Below are positions 30,004-36,604 of a DNA stretch of 45,994 bases, one piece after another. A program made the position numbers and the translations under genes. Positions within the stretch are counted from its first letter, which is position 1, and each line of letters begins with the position of its first letter. The notes under the pieces were generated by a model that saw only the letters and a program-made list of their open reading frames with translations, made no database searches and was not told the origin of the DNA. Location: IMG/VR virus record IMGVR_UViG_3300035698_022074, positions 64,001-109,994 of that record. One strand, written 5' to 3'. Source of the stretch: a virus.

Positions 30004-31527
30004 ATGTCTGATACATCAATTTTTAACGATGCACTTCTCGATGCTAAAAAGCTTCGATCCATTGCAGAAGACAATGCAAAAAATGCACTTGTCGAAGCAA
30101 TCACACCTCGTATACGCGAGATGATAGAAAAACAACTACTTGGAGAAGACACAGATGCTAGTTCTGATGTTTTTACCGAAGTTGCTGATGAATTGCTGGG
30201 AGATAACACAGAAAATCTCTCAGAAGGTTCTAAGAGCAAAAAAGATATTCTTCTAAATGAAGAGGGTGCAAAAATTCTAGCATCTTTACTTGAAGGTCGA
30301 GACGCCGTTAAAGGGGCTGAGACTCTAGAAGGCATTAAAGAAAAGTATGACCGCGTCACTATTAAGCTGCAACTCGCTAAGGAGCTCGCAGAATCAAATA
30401 CTTCTAGAGGCGGCTACGGTAAGCAAATACTTGATCGTTTAGTAACCAAAATGCTTAGCGAATCAAAAAATTTGGAAAACGATGTAATAGGTATAGTTCG
30501 AGAGGGCTCATACGGCAATCATGCTGCAATGAGTTCTGAAATTCAAAAAGTTCGCAAGGAGATTGTTGAAATGGCTTCGCGTAAGCAGAAACTAAAAGAA
30601 AGCAACGAGGTATTTAATGTCGACCTCGCTGAACTTGGTCTAAATGAAAGTGACATTGAAGACGACATGGACATGGACGACGAAGATGACTTCGACATGG
30701 AAATGGATGATGAAGTTGAAGACGACGATATGGACGTTGAAGACGACATGGACATGGATGTAGACGATGAGGAAGGTGGCGACCTTGAGATCCCTGAAGA
30801 TCTTGCACAGCAGCTTCTTGACGTCCTACAGGGTTCCGTCGACGATGACATGGACGATGAAGAAATGGACATGGACGACGAAGATGTCGACGACATGGAC
30901 GACGAAGATGTCGACGACATGGAAGATGATGAAGAAGACGACGATGAAGTCGTTGAAATTGACGAAGCAATGCTCAAGAGAGAGCTTGCTCGCATGAGGT
31001 CTTCACTCGATGAGGGTGACGGCGTTACAGATTTCGGAGGAGCAAAGAAGGATCGTGAGGCTTTCGTCGATAGCGATGATAGTGACCTTAACGTTCATGA
31101 CACGCTCAAGAAGAAGCTTAAGAAAGAGAACCGCCAGAATCGAGTTCTTCGCAACCAGGTATCCGGATTGAAGAAGGTAACTTCTAAACTCCGTGAGCAC
31201 CTTGAACAGATGAATCTGTTCAACTCTAAGTTACTCTACGTGAATAAGCTTATGCAGAATGAATCAATTTCCAAGAGATCTCTCAAGAGTATCGTGGAAG
31301 CGGTTGATGTGGCTAAGACTTTGAGAGAAGTTAGATTGATATACAAGACTGTTAACGAATCAGCAAGTGGCAAGCGTCGTAAGACTGCTAGTTCTTTGAA
31401 TGAAGGTGGACGTCGTAGTTCCTCGTCAAGAGCCTCTAGGGGTGGCGGAAGCTCACGTACACTATCTGAAGGTTCTAACCAGACTGAACGATGGGCAACA
31501 CTTGCAGGCATCAAAAACAACAAGTAA
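30004..31527 (+). CDS. Prohead scaffolding protein (gp22-like position) with a hyper-acidic D/E/M repeat insert
   Basis: It lies immediately upstream of the MCP gene. It has coiled-coil N- and C-terminal parts and an acidic region DDMDMDDEDDFDMEMDDEVEDDDMDVEDDMDMDVDD... Confidence 0.55.
   Translation: MSDTSIFNDALLDAKKLRSIAEDNAKNALVEAITPRIREMIEKQLLGEDTDASSDVFTEVADELLGDNTENLSEGSKSKKDILLNEEGAKILASLLEGRDAVKGAETLEGIKEKYDRVTIKLQLAKELAESNTSRGGYGKQILDRLVTKMLSESKNLENDVIGIVREGSYGNHAAMSSEIQKVRKEIVEMASRKQKLKESNEVFNVDLAELGLNESDIEDDMDMDDEDDFDMEMDDEVEDDDMDVEDDMDMDVDDEEGGDLEIPEDLAQQLLDVLQGSVDDDMDDEEMDMDDEDVDDMDDEDVDDMEDDEEDDDEVVEIDEAMLKRELARMRSSLDEGDGVTDFGGAKKDREAFVDSDDSDLNVHDTLKKKLKKENRQNRVLRNQVSGLKKVTSKLREHLEQMNLFNSKLLYVNKLMQNESISKRSLKSIVEAVDVAKTLREVRLIYKTVNESASGKRRKTASSLNEGGRRSSSSRASRGGGSSRTLSEGSNQTERWATLAGIKNNK
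30874..30921 (+). repeat. Perfect 24-nt tandem duplication (GACGACGAAGATGTCGACGACATG, twice) inside the scaffold acidic region
   Basis: I read this directly in the sequence at 30874..30897 and 30898..30921. Confidence 0.8.
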
Positions 31528-31560: not shown

Positions 31561-33486
31561 ATGGGTAAAGATTTTACATTAGAGCAGCTGACTGAGGGTA
31601 TTCGCTCTCGTCACCTAAGAAATGGTGGTCAGCGATTGGTTGAGAAGTGGAGCCGTACAGGTCTTCTTCGTAACCTAGGGGAAGAGAAGCGCGAAGTTAT
31701 GTCGCGTCTCCTTGAAAACCAGGCGTCTCAGCTTCTTAGAGAAACCAGCACATTGTCAGCTGGCGGTGGTGGCGGAACAGGATCTGGCGACATCAGAGGA
31801 TTCAGTAACATTGCGTTCCCAATCGTTCGTCGTGTTTTCGGCGGTCTCGTAGCGAATGAGCTCGTCTCAATTCAGCCAATGAGCCTTCCATCTGGCCTCC
31901 TATTCTACCTTGACTACACGTATGGTACAAATGTCGGTGGTGACGCAAGTCTCCAGACTGGTGCTGAAGGCGCTGCGTCGGCAGAGACTTACCGTGCAGG
32001 TCAGTCGATTTACAACTCTCCAACAGGCAAGGGTGTTCGTTCCGGTTCACTTGCAACTGGTGGACAGTACGACCTCGTAGGTTCTACGTTCTCGAAGGTA
32101 CACGCAACAACTACTGGCAATGAGCTCGCGCTTCTTGCTTCTGGTTCTTGGGGTGTTGGACAGACGCTTACTGGTGGTGCTTTGATGCACGCAACTGGTA
32201 CAGACGGTCGTCTTACAATGTTCGACCCGCAGATTGGTACGCTAATCGAAGAAGACGCAGCAGATGGTGCTTATGACGCATCTGGCCGCTGGCAGTTCCT
32301 CGTGTTTAACCTTAACCAGGTTGGATCTGATGTTGACCTTAGTAACATCAAGGACTTCTCCGTATTCTCAGCAGCTCCATCTGCTGCAGGTCTCGCACCT
32401 CTTACAGACACCTTCCAGGGTGGCAAGAACATTCTTAACCTACGTCGTCTCAACCAGCTTGGTACGTACACAGGCGGAGTCTTCACACCTAACCCACTAG
32501 TTGGGCGTTCTGATACAGGCGCTGCGGTTCTAGTTGTCGTCTCCGGTGCTTATGCTCCGACGAAGGCTGCTAACACTACTGCTGCTGTTGGTCTCACAGG
32601 TTCTTACGCAATCGGTGCATCCCTTGATGTAGACAGTGATGCTTCAACGCTCACTATCCCAAGTTTCGAGTCTGACTTCGCGACTTCACCATCGCCACAG
32701 ATTCCTGAAATCGACATCAAGGTTGAGTCAATTGCCGTTACAACAACAACTCGTAAGCTACGTGCTCGTTGGTCTCCAGAGCTTGCTCAGGACCTCAACG
32801 CGTACCACAGCGTCGACGCAGAAGTTGAACTTACACAGATTCTTTCTGAGCAGATTGCTCTTGAGATCGACCGTGAGATCCTCAACGACCTTCTAACTGA
32901 AGCTCGTGGTGCAAACTTCTACTGGTCACGTGCTCCTGGTAAGTTCGTTAACAAGACAAATGGCGTAGTCCAGAATCTTTCTAGCACACTTGCAACAGGT
33001 CCTACATTCACCGGTAACGTCCGCGAATGGTACGAGACGCTAACTGAGACAATCATCGACGTTGCTAACCAGATTCACAGAAAGACGCTTCGAGGTTCCG
33101 CGAACTTCATCGTGACTTCACCTGACATCTGCACCATCCTTGAGTCCTCCGTGCTTTACAAGCCGCAGCTTTCAATCGATGGAATGGGACAGGTTGGCGC
33201 GCCATTCAGCATTGGTGCAGAATCCGTTGGTACACTTACTAACAGATTCACGGTCTACAAGGACCCATACTTCCCACGCCAGAAGATCCTTGTTGGTTAC
33301 AAGGGCGGTTCATACCTCGAGACTGGATACGTCTATGCTCCGTATGTCCCACTCATCGTGACACCAACAATCTTCGCTCCGGAAGACTTCACACCACGTA
33401 AAGGTGTTATGACCAGATACGGCAAGAAGATGGTACGTGCCGACTTCTACGGTACAGTTACGGTTCTCGACCTTAACATTATCTAA
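31561..33486 (+). CDS. Major capsid protein, T4 gp23-like, with an enlarged insertion domain
   Basis: PIVRRVFGGLVANELVSIQPMSLPSGLLFYL aligns with T4 gp23 GMVRRAIPNLIAFDICGVQPMNSPTGQVFAL. LRARWSPELAQDLNAYHSVDAEVELTQILSEQIALEIDREI aligns with LKAAYSIELAQDLRAVHGMDADAELSGILATEIMLEINREV. VGYKGGSYLETGYVYAPYVPL aligns with VGYKGPNEMDAGIYYAPYVAL. Confidence 0.95.
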   Translation: MGKDFTLEQLTEGIRSRHLRNGGQRLVEKWSRTGLLRNLGEEKREVMSRLLENQASQLLRETSTLSAGGGGGTGSGDIRGFSNIAFPIVRRVFGGLVANELVSIQPMSLPSGLLFYLDYTYGTNVGGDASLQTGAEGAASAETYRAGQSIYNSPTGKGVRSGSLATGGQYDLVGSTFSKVHATTTGNELALLASGSWGVGQTLTGGALMHATGTDGRLTMFDPQIGTLIEEDAADGAYDASGRWQFLVFNLNQVGSDVDLSNIKDFSVFSAAPSAAGLAPLTDTFQGGKNILNLRRLNQLGTYTGGVFTPNPLVGRSDTGAAVLVVVSGAYAPTKAANTTAAVGLTGSYAIGASLDVDSDASTLTIPSFESDFATSPSPQIPEIDIKVESIAVTTTTRKLRARWSPELAQDLNAYHSVDAEVELTQILSEQIALEIDREILNDLLTEARGANFYWSRAPGKFVNKTNGVVQNLSSTLATGPTFTGNVREWYETLTETIIDVANQIHRKTLRGSANFIVTSPDICTILESSVLYKPQLSIDGMGQVGAPFSIGAESVGTLTNRFTVYKDPYFPRQKILVGYKGGSYLETGYVYAPYVPLIVTPTIFAPEDFTPRKGVMTRYGKKMVRADFYGTVTVLDLNII

Positions 33487-33507
33487 TTCTGGCAGCACTT
33501 TAATCAA

Positions 33508-33542
33508 GGCGTCCTCTTTGCAGAGGACGCCTTTTTTGTTTT
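33508..33542 (+). terminator. Rho-independent terminator after the capsid gene
   Basis: GGCGTCCTCT ttgc AGAGGACGCC forms a perfect 10-bp GC-rich stem, followed by TTTTTTGTTTT. Confidence 0.75.
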
Positions 33543-33608
33543 CTCGATCATTGATGTCATGATACCTATACAAGGAAGTAAGTCTCAATAGAATGTATAG
33601 AGGTCTAA

Positions 33609-35678
33609 ATGTCACTTAACTATTTAAAACTGTTCGATGATCATACATGCAAGCTCTGTGAAAAGTATTGTAAAAATAGAAGATCACTCGGCAATCACCT
33701 TGCAAGATCACACAATGGATACGATATTCAAAGTTATGTCTTGCAGTTTTACCTTAACGGAATTAATCCGAAGTGTAAATGCGGTTGCGGAGAAGACGTC
33801 AAGTGGAAGAAGACAAAGTATTGTTTTGGCGAATACGTCAATGGGCACAACAATAGATTCACAGCAAACAAACAGCCTACGTTTACGAAAGAACAAGTCA
33901 AAGACAGAAATGTTGCAATTAGGCGTGCTTATAAAGAGAACAGTAAGTCAATAAAGGCAAAGATCTCAAAATCACTAGAAGCAGCCTGGCAAGACAATGA
34001 AAAGAGAGAACGTTGGGAGCTTAAAAGAAAGACACAATATGTAGACAATGGTTGGACCACAGAATCTATATCAAAACTGCGTAAGAAAGTCTGGCGAGAG
34101 AACTATGATGAAATGTACAAGAAGATTTTCACAGATGAATTTAAGAAGAAGATCTCGCTCGCAAACATGTCAAGAAATCTAACAAACACATCGAAGAAAG
34201 AACAAGCTTTCATCAAAGTATTGACAGCAGCGTCAAAGAATGATAAAGTAGTTGATAGTTACTGGGTCAATAGTGCAGAATACACGAAATGTTTTGACGC
34301 TTTCATACCTTCACATAACTTGCTGATTGAATTCGATGGCGTATTTTGGCACGGCTTAGATCGAAGCGAGAATTTCACAGTCTCACAACTATCAGGAATG
34401 ACAAATGATCTTAAAAAGAACGAGATCGCAAAACTTGAAGAGAAGTCACTGATACGAATCAACAGCACATGTAACTGGAAAAATGCAACAACAATCCAGG
34501 AACTCATTGACTTAGCATATTATCACCAGGACATATCAGGTTCTATCATTAAAGATGAAAGACAAAAATTCGATGACAAGACGCGCTTTTTGACGCGAAG
34601 CAAGCTTATTGAACAAAACCATGTAGAACTTGGAGGCAAAGGGAAAGAGTGGACAGAAAACGTTTATCTGCCTGCTATACGAGAGTTTATGAGAGCTTTT
34701 GTAAGCGCTAATGATTGGTTCTATCCCAAATCAAGGAAAAGCCTGAGAGAGACTCTGGTAAGTGTCAGAAAGATTGGTCTGCGAGATTGTCACAAAGAAC
34801 CGATTAGTTCACTCGGAGTCGTTGGAAATGCATATCTAAAGGAACACATCAAATCTTTTTGGCATGTGTCTGATGGTCCTGTGGCATCTTTTATGGATGA
34901 TAAATCATTCAATGCAGTGCTTAGATATCGTCTCGGAATAAACAACTCAAAAAAGTACGAATATCAACTTGACAATGGCGAAATGTTTTCTACTAACGAA
35001 CACTTCGACATAAGCTTTAGCACAATCAGACGGGGATTTATTGTACAAAGAAAAGCTGTGAGTTTTTTCAAGCCAACTGCCGCTGCCGTGATCTATCAAA
35101 GGTTTTTAGGGCACTTAGAAAAACCCTCTGTGTGGGATCCTTCTGGCGGATTCGGCGCTAGAATGCTTGGATTTGCAGCGATGTTTCCCGAAGGTTCTTA
35201 TACGTGTACAGAACCTGGTGTGTCTTTGTCTCATGAATTAACTACTTTGGGCAACAAGCTCAAAAAAGGGAAATTCATCAATCAAGTTAGTGTCATTAAA
35301 TCGGGTAGTGAATGTGTCAAATTTGATGAGTACAACAGTTTTGACCTAGTATTTACAAGCCCACCGTACTTTGATCTTGAAAAATACTTTGATGAACCTG
35401 GACAATGCTGGAGAGATTATCCGAATATTGATGCCTGGAAAGATCTGTACTTAGTGCCTACGCTTACACGTGCTAAAAATCATTTAGCACATAATGGAAG
35501 GGTCGTCATCAATATCTCACGTGCGCTTGAGCAGGACGTGATTGAATCTGCTAAGTCTGCTGGTCTTGAGCTCGTTGAAACCTTTTACTTGAGTGCAGGT
35601 CGAGATCATTTCTCTCGCAAAAAGTCAGTTAGTAAGCCTCTTACAGAACCGATCCTCGTATTTATACCCAGACAGTAA
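33609..35678 (+). CDS. Multidomain nuclease-methyltransferase. It has an N-terminal C2H2-like zinc finger plus a CxCGCG...GHN module, three NUMOD3-like DNA-binding repeats, a Vsr/DUF559-like PD-(D/E)xK nuclease motif, and a C-terminal amino-methyltransferase domain (motif I then SPPY).
   Basis: Zinc finger CKLCEKYCKNRRSLGNHLARSH, with KCKCGCGE...YVNGHNN following. Repeats NSKSIKAKISKSL, TESISKLRKKVW and EFKKKISLANM. Nuclease motif LLIEFDGVFWHGLD (Vsr FvhGCFWHgH-like). MTase motif I VWDPSGGFGARMLG and motif IV VFTSPPYFD about 70 aa later (gamma-like order). Confidence 0.7.
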   Translation: MSLNYLKLFDDHTCKLCEKYCKNRRSLGNHLARSHNGYDIQSYVLQFYLNGINPKCKCGCGEDVKWKKTKYCFGEYVNGHNNRFTANKQPTFTKEQVKDRNVAIRRAYKENSKSIKAKISKSLEAAWQDNEKRERWELKRKTQYVDNGWTTESISKLRKKVWRENYDEMYKKIFTDEFKKKISLANMSRNLTNTSKKEQAFIKVLTAASKNDKVVDSYWVNSAEYTKCFDAFIPSHNLLIEFDGVFWHGLDRSENFTVSQLSGMTNDLKKNEIAKLEEKSLIRINSTCNWKNATTIQELIDLAYYHQDISGSIIKDERQKFDDKTRFLTRSKLIEQNHVELGGKGKEWTENVYLPAIREFMRAFVSANDWFYPKSRKSLRETLVSVRKIGLRDCHKEPISSLGVVGNAYLKEHIKSFWHVSDGPVASFMDDKSFNAVLRYRLGINNSKKYEYQLDNGEMFSTNEHFDISFSTIRRGFIVQRKAVSFFKPTAAAVIYQRFLGHLEKPSVWDPSGGFGARMLGFAAMFPEGSYTCTEPGVSLSHELTTLGNKLKKGKFINQVSVIKSGSECVKFDEYNSFDLVFTSPPYFDLEKYFDEPGQCWRDYPNIDAWKDLYLVPTLTRAKNHLAHNGRVVINISRALEQDVIESAKSAGLELVETFYLSAGRDHFSRKKSVSKPLTEPILVFIPRQ

Positions 35679-35680
35679 TT

Positions 35681-35746
35681 ATTGATGCGTTTTTAGTTAT
35701 CTACCCTGATACAACCATAAGGGCAAGAAGACAAAAACGCATCAAT
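35681..35746. repeat. Perfect 14-bp inverted repeat (ATTGATGCGTTTTT ... AAAAACGCATCAAT) with a 38-nt loop that contains an inner CCCT/AGGG stem, located 2 nt after the nuclease-MTase stop
   Basis: I read this directly: 35681..35694 pairs with 35733..35746. Confidence 0.7.
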
Positions 35747-35950
35747 ATTTGCCTTTACAAAATGTGTTTCTCTAGTTTATTGACAGTCATGACGTGAACG
35801 GGTACTTATCGGTGTTGGCTTTTAATTGACATAAGTGGTGTAGAATTTACTCGAGAGACTTTTAAATTTGTCTCTATATGTTTTACAGTATTTGATGATA
35901 AAAGCCTGACATCAGAAGCTGCCTATCCATATTCACAAAAAGATGGTCGC

Positions 35951-36529
35951 ATGTTTGATGTAACGTCAGGTAGCATTAACATTCGATTAAACATCAACGG
36001 GACGAGTAATAACGCTGTTGAATCAGATCTTCCAGGGCATGTTACAAGTACAGTTAATGGTGTCAACGGATACTGGGCGCGTCTTAAGGTTAGTTCTTCG
36101 ATTACTGCCTCACCAACTATTAGTCTTACAAAACTAGGAAGAAGCAGAGTTCAAATAAACAGTGACGGATTTTTTGAAAAGTTCGGACGCGCTGTCGATC
36201 TAAGAGCATTCCCAAGTGTCAGACTATCTACAGCAGATGACTTAGTTTCTGCAGGAAATGTCAAGTTAGATCTCTATATTGCGGAGTCTTTGAGCGAGGG
36301 CACTAATGTCGACACACAAGCTGTGGCAGACAAATTGTATTCAAAGACAAGATCAATCTTAACGACAACAGCTGGAAAACTATACATTGTAGAAATTCCC
36401 TTCTTTCTAAACAGCACAAATGATGGTAACTTTTGGGCCTTCGCGCTTAAGAGGGTCGGGAGCGCTGATTCTTTCTCCGGTGCTATTAAGCTTTCTTTCC
36501 TAGAGGTTATTGCTTCATTCTGGAAATAA
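35951..36529 (+). CDS. Hypothetical beta-rich protein (192 aa). By position between gp23 and gp13 it might be a tail-completion (gp3-like) protein.
   Basis: This is the only ORF in the interval. It has a weak RBS. I recognise no sequence homology. Confidence 0.45.
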   Translation: MFDVTSGSINIRLNINGTSNNAVESDLPGHVTSTVNGVNGYWARLKVSSSITASPTISLTKLGRSRVQINSDGFFEKFGRAVDLRAFPSVRLSTADDLVSAGNVKLDLYIAESLSEGTNVDTQAVADKLYSKTRSILTTTAGKLYIVEIPFFLNSTNDGNFWAFALKRVGSADSFSGAIKLSFLEVIASFWK

Positions 36530-36570
36530 AGCCGACATTGCTGATTGTTAGAGAAGTGAGGACTTAGACA

Positions 36571-36584
36571 CGATATGTATTAAT
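36571..36584 (+). promoter_or_regulatory. Recurrent intergenic motif CGATATGTATTAAT upstream of the gp13-like gene
   Basis: This is the same core as at 40211 and 28313. Confidence 0.2.
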
Positions 36585-36604
36585 GTCGAGTTGGGAGCCT
36601 TTAC

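Follow-up and report, generated by a model that had tools for sequence, protein, structure and literature searches.

Why should a phage carry, directly behind its capsid gene, a single reading frame in which DNA-binding modules, a nuclease and a methyltransferase are joined end to end? The question is raised by a stretch of 45,994 nt from an uncultured T4-like phage (IMG/VR record IMGVR_UViG_3300035698_022074, positions 64,001-109,994), which we call the window and to whose positions all unlabelled coordinates refer; related loci and proteins compared with it bear labels of the form Lxxx and Pxxxx. The open reading frame (ORF) in question, X, adjoins the capsid gene and runs from an ATG start at 33609..35678 on the + strand, as do all features described below unless stated otherwise. 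It encodes 689 amino acids that combine zinc-finger modules, a Vsr-type nuclease and an SPPY methyltransferase in a single chain. The entire 46-kb window is a structural module on the + strand, and X shares strand and module with the late structural genes. An earlier note, made from the letters alone, had read X as a nuclease-methyltransferase fusion and a probable mobile cassette. We find that X consists of two units, each of which exists separately in related phages. Whether these units form a self-immunising homing or restriction-like cassette, as can be inferred from sequence, we judge to be an evenly balanced matter.

A protein search returned 77 homologues of X, nearly all of them full length, 37-56% identical and all metagenomic. 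In an alignment of 40 sequences (A1) both zinc sites, the nuclease residues and the methyltransferase motifs were invariant; given this invariance and the number of homologues, the features of X are not the product of chance. An AlphaFold2 model predicted from the 40-sequence alignment had a mean predicted local distance difference test score (pLDDT) of 88.9 and a predicted template modelling score of 0.71. The motifs quoted in the earlier note lie where it had placed them (CKLC at residues 14-17, HLARSH at 30-35, CKCGCG at 56-61, GHN at 79-81, then LLIEFDGVFWHGLD, VWDPSGGFGARMLG and TSPPY at 583-587), and alignment, model and fold search agreed on the order of zinc finger, Vsr-like nuclease and amino-methyltransferase, with motif I before motif IV. 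A scan against NCBIfam gave zero matches for X and for the ORF downstream of it. One homologue (L018 9929-12841), of 970 amino acids, carries an extra C-terminal glycosyltransferase domain (Glycos_transf_1, E 5.8e-7).

The first unit opens with a C2H2 zinc finger (residues 12-35; 33642..33713), in which C14, C17, H30 and H35 were invariant in A1. Its ligands follow the C-x2-C...H-x4-H pattern and are placed by the model on the strand-strand-helix arrangement of this family (strands 11-13 and 19-21, helix 24-34); Pfam and PDB matches to the finger were below threshold (E 0.028-0.5). Next comes another putative zinc module, CxCxC..GHN (residues 54-81; 33768..33851), with C56, C58, C60 and H80 invariant, which belongs to no named family and which was also present in TnsA-like and Vsr-like nuclease genes at the same slot of relatives. 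Three such genes sitting directly 3' of the capsid gene (L096 12027-12815, L154 12052-12849 and L020 6845-7816) join C2H2 and CxCGCG..GH[NS] modules to a TnsA-like PD-(D/E)xK nuclease. The zinc DNA-binding module thus appears to be shuffled among nuclease types. Beyond it, a run of five short helices (residues 94-175; 33888..34133), predicted at 94-110, 112-128, 130-146, 151-164 and 166-173 with pLDDT 64-82, presumably extends the DNA-binding region. Three NUMOD3-like K-K-I-S repeats had been proposed here. What we found was two K-I-S (118-120 and 181-183) and one I-S-K (154-156), and Pfam gave no match to NUMOD1, NUMOD3 (PF07460) or NUMOD4 in X at E<=1; the same tool did detect a true NUMOD3 in a GIY-YIG gene in the slot of L074. 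The zinc modules and the five helices occupy the position at which NUMOD motifs would be expected.

The catalytic domain is of the Vsr/EDxHD type (residues 176-302; 34134..34514), with N186, E198, D230, D243, H248, D267 and K270 invariant. A Pfam Vsr match below the cut-off begins at residue 176, and the segment at 181-190 (KKISLANMSRN), previously taken for the third KKIS repeat, is instead the N-terminal conserved segment of the Vsr domain and aligns to SKNMRAI of Vsr. The nuclease motif that had been singled out, LLIEFDGVFWHGLD at residues 238-251, does hold the positions equivalent to Vsr H64, W68 and H69 (D243, W247 and H248), but the equivalent of the metal-binding aspartate, Vsr D51, lies outside and upstream of it, at D230. 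Alignment of the nuclease profile to authentic E. coli Vsr was weak (probability 4.6%) and had the expected register, D230=D51, D243=H64, W247=W68 and H248=H69. When the nuclease profile (A2) was compared using hhalign with AR9_g079 of Bacillus phage AR9, whose annotation is that of a group I intron VSR homing endonuclease and which sits within a gene split into three pieces, a match of 96.3% (E 1.6e-9) was obtained. In a fold comparison of the nuclease domain the closest structural or sequence relatives were the DNA enzymes Vsr, I-Bth0305I and the AR9 intron endonuclease, with RAP/FASTKD4, which is Vsr-like and RNA-binding, at ranks 2-4 and 8. Searches of PDB sequences with the protein, the nuclease profile and the full profile gave no nuclease match and none to 3R3P, and the nuclease was identified solely through the fold comparison and the AR9 profile match.

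X shares with the EDxHD family the Vsr-type fold (PD-(D/E)xK clade VSR/DUF559), the conserved E, D, H and D residues (E198, D230, D243, H248 and D267, in the 40 sequences) and, through AR9_g079, homology to an accepted member; in this lineage the DNA-binding modules are N-terminal to the catalytic domain (PMC3239194). Because of the AR9_g079 match and the Vsr register of the catalytic residues, we place the nuclease of X in the Vsr-like EDxHD homing-endonuclease lineage. We conclude that residues 1-302 have the sequence features of a free-standing homing-endonuclease-type nuclease, with every predicted catalytic residue intact. A linker of two short strands followed by helices (residues 303-406; 34515..34826) was confidently modelled. 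The model was likewise confident over residues 303-488 as a whole, yet no solved structure matched them in the fold search.

The second unit comprises a pre-methyltransferase region (residues 407-488; 34827..35072) and a class I Rossmann amino-methyltransferase core (residues 489-689; 35073..35675). The former, with the pattern YRLGxNNSK..Y.Y..E.FDI..R.GF.VQR..VS.F, is the most invariant stretch of the family and accompanies the core in its stand-alone forms, and for these two reasons we presume it to be the target-recognition part. The core, of about 200 C-terminal residues, is modelled as seven-stranded, with motif I before motif IV and nothing after the final strand (the last two strands being 653-663 and 678-687). 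Motif I, VWDPSGGFGARMLG at residues 508-521 (35130-35171), contains DPSxGFG at 510-516, of which D510, P511, S512, G514 and F515 were invariant; in motif IV, TSPPY at 583-587 (35355-35369), T583, P585 and P586 were invariant and S584 and Y587 conserved in at least 90%. An S-P-P-Y motif IV is typical of N4-cytosine DNA methyltransferases.

The motif features of PF01555, the N6_N4 DNA methylase family (an FxGxG-like motif I and motif IV of the form (S/D/N)PP(Y/F)), are both found in X. PF01555 itself matched 26 of 40 family members (best E 2e-9), and the relatives P0138, P0161 and P0163 scored 28.8-33.1 bits against its cut-off of 26.7 bits; the window protein gave no match at E<=1. The top PDB match of the family profile was TTHA0409, a putative DNA modification methylase (E 0.0058), through the shared TSPPY-x5-Y-x-D/E-x-PGQ. 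PHROG gave weak DNA methyltransferase matches and PADLOC only a weak MTase_II (E 1.8e-4). In Vibrio phages, homologues of the core that stand alone bear the annotation N4-cytosine DNA methylase, and the database names of some other homologues are tRNA methylases. When the full-length model was used for fold searches, generic Rossmann methyltransferases crowded the results, and the substrate was not classifiable from them. Since the PF01555, TTHA0409, PHROG and PADLOC sequence matches, together with the fusion partners described below, all point the same way, the methyl acceptor is probably DNA, as had been proposed; this assignment is favoured by sequence profiles and partners, not by fold. 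Residues ~354/407-689 are most likely an SPPY amino-methyltransferase with its own N-terminal extension, of the DNA N4-cytosine or N6-adenine type.

If the two units can live apart, with what does the methyltransferase associate elsewhere? Searching with the methyltransferase part recovered many proteins of 330-370 amino acids that consist of the pre-methyltransferase region and core only (411 amino acids in L020), and an exhaustive search of 1.84 billion representatives returned, as cluster representatives, 3,129 sequences related to the unit with E<=1e-3 (846 with E<=1e-10). Seven stand-alone contexts were inspected, five of which had a nuclease neighbour. In P0087, P0094 and P0089 the methyltransferase gene shares its 3' end with an overlapping HNH_3 gene, in P0080 an HNH_3/NUMOD4 gene lies directly upstream of it, and in P0084 a double Endonuclease VII gene (phrog_2633, 1.6e-33) lies downstream. 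A methyltransferase-HNH pair is located at L177 7001-8765 and the methyltransferase-Endonuclease VII pair at L185 1496-3635. Some of these phages are related, so the five adjacencies amount to about three independent arrangements. Among ten long relatives sampled, eight were fused to HNH_3, mostly together with NUMOD4 and on either side, one to four homing-endonuclease-associated repeats (HNH_repeat) and one to a ROS/MucR zinc finger; nine of the ten are thus fusions to HNH_3 and NUMOD4, in either order, or to HNH_repeat. A census of 250 unit-bearing proteins, the composition of which is biased by the queries used, comprised 101 with zinc modules, Vsr domain and methyltransferase, 22 with Vsr domain and methyltransferase, 12 with zinc modules and methyltransferase, 16 HNH fusions, 67 methyltransferases alone and 31 with an N-terminal extension to which no identity was assigned. 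As a separate observation, at L184 4001-6475 a methyltransferase-HNH pair is followed by an ordinary PF01555/D12-type DNA methyltransferase gene (phrog_67, 1.2e-35).

The methyltransferase is linked to homing-type nucleases far above the frequency expected of chance neighbours. A scan of 185,579 bacterial and archaeal genomes (one per species) turned up no relative of X, and from its sequence relationships X would belong to a large, virus-only group that pairs one methyltransferase repeatedly with homing-type nucleases. Targeted literature searches, whose coverage was incomplete so that an earlier description is possible, found no description of homing endonuclease-methyltransferase fusions.

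We then asked whether the place of X in the genome is that of a core gene or of an accessory one. As the earlier note had stated, X lies between a gp23-like major capsid gene (31561..33486; Pfam Gp23 1.1e-76, phrog_138 1e-74), the left anchor of the locus, and a gp13-like neck gene encoding a head-tail adaptor, the right anchor (36605..37813; phrog_211 6.2e-13), whose ortholog in L175, 85% identical, carries Pfam Phage_T4_gp13. Every full-length homologue with visible upstream sequence was found directly 3' of a capsid gene, over capsid identities of 35-98%, in a set composed of IMG/VR contigs, one Logan contig and one 484-kb 'huge phage' record. We considered from this that X might be universal at the slot, and rejected the idea after surveys anchored on the capsid gene. 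Among 80 IMG/VR relatives (capsid identity 63-73%) none had full-length X; the slot was fully visible and X absent in 45, X was probably absent in two, and eight had an N-terminal-like gene only; X was carried by 0 of the 51 capsid relatives with a readable slot. In a metagenome survey of a further 80 relatives X was present in two, absent in 33 and probably absent in three, six had N-terminal-like fragments and the rest were too short (2 of 44 contigs with a readable slot). On the capsid tree, X carriers fall into at least four clades nested among non-carriers.

The gap between the capsid gene and gp13 ranges from ~150 bp to ~10.5 kb in relatives and is filled with unrelated cargo, which includes a widespread gene of ~150 amino acids, a non-specific endonuclease (Endonuclease_NS, 2e-51), a GIY-YIG/NUMOD3 homing endonuclease, weakly tubulin/FtsZ-like, weakly sulfotransferase-like and GP88-family proteins, and X-type zinc modules on a TnsA-like domain. 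The tubulin-like cargo, of ~430 amino acids, occurs at L095 2753-4054 and six related loci and has a weak match to Tubulin/FtsZ GTPase (Pfam E 8.7e-5, below the cut-off). In T4 the homing endonuclease gene segD is directly 3' of gene 23, which bears out the earlier suggestion that this is a slot where T4-like phages carry genes of the seg/mob type, and many phages have clusters of homing endonuclease genes close to their capsid genes (PMC10055350). Because X is absent from most readable relatives, the gap cargo is variable and segD occupies the same place in T4, we conclude that X is an accessory gene in a homing-endonuclease-rich island. Forms of X that resemble stages of decay were also seen: L015 and L002 have no zinc modules, L004 has no helical repeats, and L020 retains only the methyltransferase unit, with separate nuclease genes nearby.

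The window could be compared with a strain, L189, which is 98.9% identical in DNA and also carries X. The two copies of X differ at eight nucleotides, giving two amino-acid changes; since the catalytic residues are invariant across 40 sequences of 37-56% identity and just two of the eight nucleotide changes are non-synonymous, X is under purifying selection. Taken together, the comparisons show two separable units with predicted active sites intact and with both units under constraint.

How might such a protein act? In the reading that we favour, the nuclease would cut DNA with unmethylated target sites, namely the genomes of related phages that infect the same cell and have no cassette, and possibly host DNA, while the linked methyltransferase would mark identical or overlapping sites in the phage's own DNA as it replicates and so render the carrier immune. 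Fusion would stop recombination from separating poison from antidote. The break in a rival genome would either be repaired from the carrier, so that the cassette is copied into the same slot (homing), or the rival would simply be eliminated. We base this reading on the intact active sites, the purifying selection, the patchy presence at a fixed slot and the repeated pairing of the methyltransferase with homing nucleases; the DNA substrate, the overlap of cleavage and methylation sites, the immunity and the homing are steps that we infer. A broader proposal, which we advance with some hesitation, is that one viral/metagenomic methyltransferase family has been captured repeatedly by homing-type nucleases of at least three catalytic classes (Vsr/EDxHD, HNH_3/NUMOD4 and Endonuclease VII), by fusion in either order or as overlapping genes; if the mark blocks the partner, these would be methylation-immune homing endonucleases.

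Several observations weigh against a self-immunising cassette. The window protein is under every Pfam cut-off, and a fold search puts the methyltransferase core nearest to tRNA N2-methylguanosine (m2G) enzymes rather than DNA methyltransferases. Among 4- and 6-mer palindromes in the window (observed/expected) none was absent or so strongly avoided as to hint at a recognition site. Coupling is not obligatory, each activity occurring without the other: the methyltransferase has no neighbouring nuclease in P0109, P0111 and L020, and nucleases with zinc modules and Vsr domain lacking a methyltransferase exist, typically just after gp13 (for example L042 3965-4777, 270 amino acids). Related phages account for several of the stand-alone contexts, each of which has a gene of ~230 amino acids directly upstream; in three of them this is preceded by a gene of 620-710 amino acids. 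Further, the identity of X tracks that of the capsid protein (r 0.975; 15 pairs, not independent of one another) and stays below it throughout; in the closest distinct relative, L175, the capsid protein is 87%, gp13 85% and X 56% identical, and no pairwise comparison showed X to be more similar than its flanks. A metagenome scan for near-identical genomes without X found only L189, a carrier. Because X and capsid diverge in parallel and no near-identical genome lacking X was found, recent transfer of X is not demonstrated, and the patchy distribution fits an old resident that has been lost many times as well as homing among relatives only. Of the mobile cassette originally proposed, then, the accessory nature is upheld by the comparison of gp23-gp13 intervals; mobility is not, given the fixed slot and the divergence that follows the capsid. 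On the three points that the earlier note had named as decisive, the catalytic residues are present, X is not universal, and the methyltransferase is not placed off DNA outright.

The same facts can be assembled differently. The methyltransferase may be cargo, an orphan anti-restriction enzyme directed against host restriction, with the nuclease a selfish neighbour or fusion partner that mobilises it or hitch-hikes, the two having no common target and conferring no mutual immunity. It is consistent with this that the methyltransferase unit is alone in 67 of the 250 census proteins, and in L020, P0109 and P0111, that the Vibrio phage homologues annotated as N4-cytosine DNA methylases stand alone, that the nuclease has its own DNA-binding modules and therefore needs no help from the methyltransferase, and that the slot is a general hot spot where homing endonucleases turn over beside any cargo (PMC10055350). 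However, neighbourhood can hardly explain fusion to two unrelated nuclease classes, with HNH in both orders, or start and stop codons that overlap with those of HNH genes, and the full fusion with both active sites invariant is kept down to ~35% capsid identity; we regard the cargo explanation as unlikely, if still worth serious consideration. A domesticated function, in which X would be a vertically inherited late enzyme acting on the phage's own DNA (for example nicking or processing and methylation before packaging), often lost and neither selfish nor competitive, would account well for the constant place 3' of the capsid gene over 35-98% capsid identity, the correlated divergence, the purifying selection and the strand and module shared with late structural genes, and Vsr is indeed a nicking enzyme (PMC3239194). 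Yet X is dispensable, being absent from 51 of 51 IMG/VR and 42 of 44 metagenome readable slots, some of them gaps of ~150 bp; truncated or split forms exist (L015/L002, L004 and L020), and in unrelated phages the partner of this methyltransferase is one or another of several interchangeable nuclease types. Domestication seems to us improbable on this account. That both units are directed at RNA, with the methyltransferase modifying RNA (exocyclic amines of tRNA or rRNA being one example) and the Vsr-like domain binding or cutting it, would suit the ranks of RAP/FASTKD4 in the nuclease fold comparison and the tRNA methylase names of some homologues. Against this, the profiles favour PF01555 and TTHA0409, the nearest relatives of the nuclease (Vsr, I-Bth0305I and the AR9 intron endonuclease) act on DNA, and the fusion partners of the family are DNA homing-endonuclease modules (HNH_3, NUMOD4, HNH_repeat) and C2H2/ROS_MUCR zinc fingers. 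With the SPPY motif also of the kind typical of N4-cytosine DNA methyltransferases, we hold an RNA-directed role to be very improbable.

Selfish DNA-cutting elements are usually divided into homing endonucleases and restriction-modification systems, two kinds thought to have nothing but nuclease folds in common. In phages, as seen here, a single methyltransferase family is repeatedly fused or tightly linked to homing-type nucleases. Were the methyl mark to block the partner nuclease, the enzymes of this class would be a functioning link between homing endonuclease genes and restriction-modification. Sites that do not vary in essential phage genes would become targetable, because the carrier need not mutate its own target, and methylation, if it gives immunity, would explain how a nuclease can attack the invariant sites of rivals without cutting itself. 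This would add a mechanism of phage-against-phage competition and gene drive, and would offer compact enzymes with separable DNA-binding, cutting and marking units. If the methyltransferase is merely cargo, the locus is still a clear capsid-adjacent homing-endonuclease island in uncultured T4-like phages.

X has a hairpin on either side. The capsid terminator reported in the earlier note is real, an intrinsic terminator with a 12-bp stem, a 4-nt loop and a T run (33506..33533) that forms the left island edge; a GC-rich hairpin and T run follow the capsid stop codon in six relatives inspected, and the same arrangement is present in L098, L163, L113, L110 and L175. The perfect 14-bp inverted repeat reported after X exists too, but is part of a longer structure, a stable hairpin over the X stop codon (35677..35750, no strand assigned) with 18-nt arms (35677-35694 and 35733-35750) that have one mismatch and contain the perfect 14-mer, and with a 38-nt loop; its RNA fold has a free energy of -31.7 kcal/mol (z -7.0), and it is probably a terminator or stability element. 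In L189 (11743-11813) the 38-nt loop, window 35695-35732, is the exact reverse complement, and the loop of the capsid terminator (33518-33521) is likewise flipped, from TTGC to GCAA; both changes are small inversions between inverted-repeat arms. The remaining variable island (35751..36604) includes an orphan ORF (35951-36529, 192 amino acids) which matched no family in profile scans, had no homologue, did not cluster with any slot ORF and may not be a real gene. In L189 the segment corresponding to window 35818-36009, which holds the start codon of this ORF, is missing and ~170 extra nt are present near 36250; the stretch 35751-36604 is prone to insertions and deletions. An Rfam scan of 33000-37000 found no intron and no other RNA family, and a search of the whole window found no tRNA gene.

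The neighbouring genes provided some further observations. Between the capsid gene and its counterpart in L189 (7624-9546) there are 18 nucleotide differences leading to 13 amino-acid changes, ten of them at residues 208-418, a pattern suggestive of diversification in one part of the encoded protein. Ahead of the capsid gene, a scaffold-like protein with a long D/E/M repeat run (30004-31527) is encoded by the most variable stretch relative to L189, with 46 differences in the 500-nt bin 30417-30916. A TATTTA-containing motif lies ~15-50 nt upstream of the gp13 start in L098, L163, L113, L110 and L175; the corresponding window sequences are ATGTATTAATG upstream of gp13 and ATGTATAGAGG upstream of X, and the motif may be a late-promoter element. 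Finally, an ART-PolyVal-like ORF (37819-38292; Pfam E 3.1e-6, below the cut-off) separates gp13 from the next conserved gene. These two genes are adjacent in relatives, and L175 keeps a 44-amino-acid remnant of the ORF (70% identity, L175 13936-14067); the region 37819-38292 is a second accessory insertion site, and in other relatives the slot immediately behind gp13 is occupied by nucleases with zinc modules and Vsr domain.

Where does X stand among known systems? Among the closest are the EDxHD enzymes (prototype I-Bth0305I, PDB 3R3P, and the phage Hef-type and AR9 intron-encoded members), which like X have an N-terminal DNA-binding region followed by a Vsr-fold catalytic domain with conserved catalytic residues, and which are phage-borne and patchy among relatives. 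X differs from the prototypes in being free-standing, with no intron or intein (there is no Rfam intron and the flanking genes are intact), and in having as its DNA-binding part a C2H2 finger, a CxCxC..H module and helices with no detectable NUMOD motifs. It also has a C-terminal extension of ~390 amino acids that contains the methyltransferase; the paper describing I-Bth0305I never mentions a methyltransferase (PMC3239194).

The Type IIG/IIC enzymes MmeI, BpuSI and DrdV resemble X in that an N-terminal nuclease and a downstream amino-methyltransferase, with motif I before motif IV, share one polypeptide. A likeness to Type IIG/IIL had been pointed out, but we rejected membership: the nuclease of X is of the Vsr/EDxHD type with its own zinc-finger DNA-binding modules, motif IV is SPPY and not the NPPY of gamma-class N6-adenine enzymes, and the chain stops at the last core strand, leaving no C-terminal target-recognition domain to serve both activities. 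Moreover, whereas Type IIG/IIC genes are cellular defence genes, the X family is absent from the 185,579 cellular genomes and sits in a phage structural module. With free-standing homing endonuclease genes, as in the islands exemplified by segD, X shares the slot right after the major capsid gene and a variable island in which several nuclease classes and unrelated cargo differ in presence among relatives; the T4 seg and mob proteins, by contrast, are GIY-YIG or HNH enzymes with no modification enzyme. Their self-immunity comes from target sequence differences or hypermodified DNA, with no linked methyltransferase. The Dcm-Vsr pair of E. coli offers a precedent for genetic coupling between a nuclease of the Vsr fold and a DNA methyltransferase; in K-12, vsr and dcm overlap. 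Dcm, however, is a C5-cytosine methyltransferase and Vsr repairs the T:G mismatches that arise from deamination of 5-methylcytosine, whereas X has an amino-methyltransferase, putative sequence-specific DNA-binding modules and the context of a selfish element.

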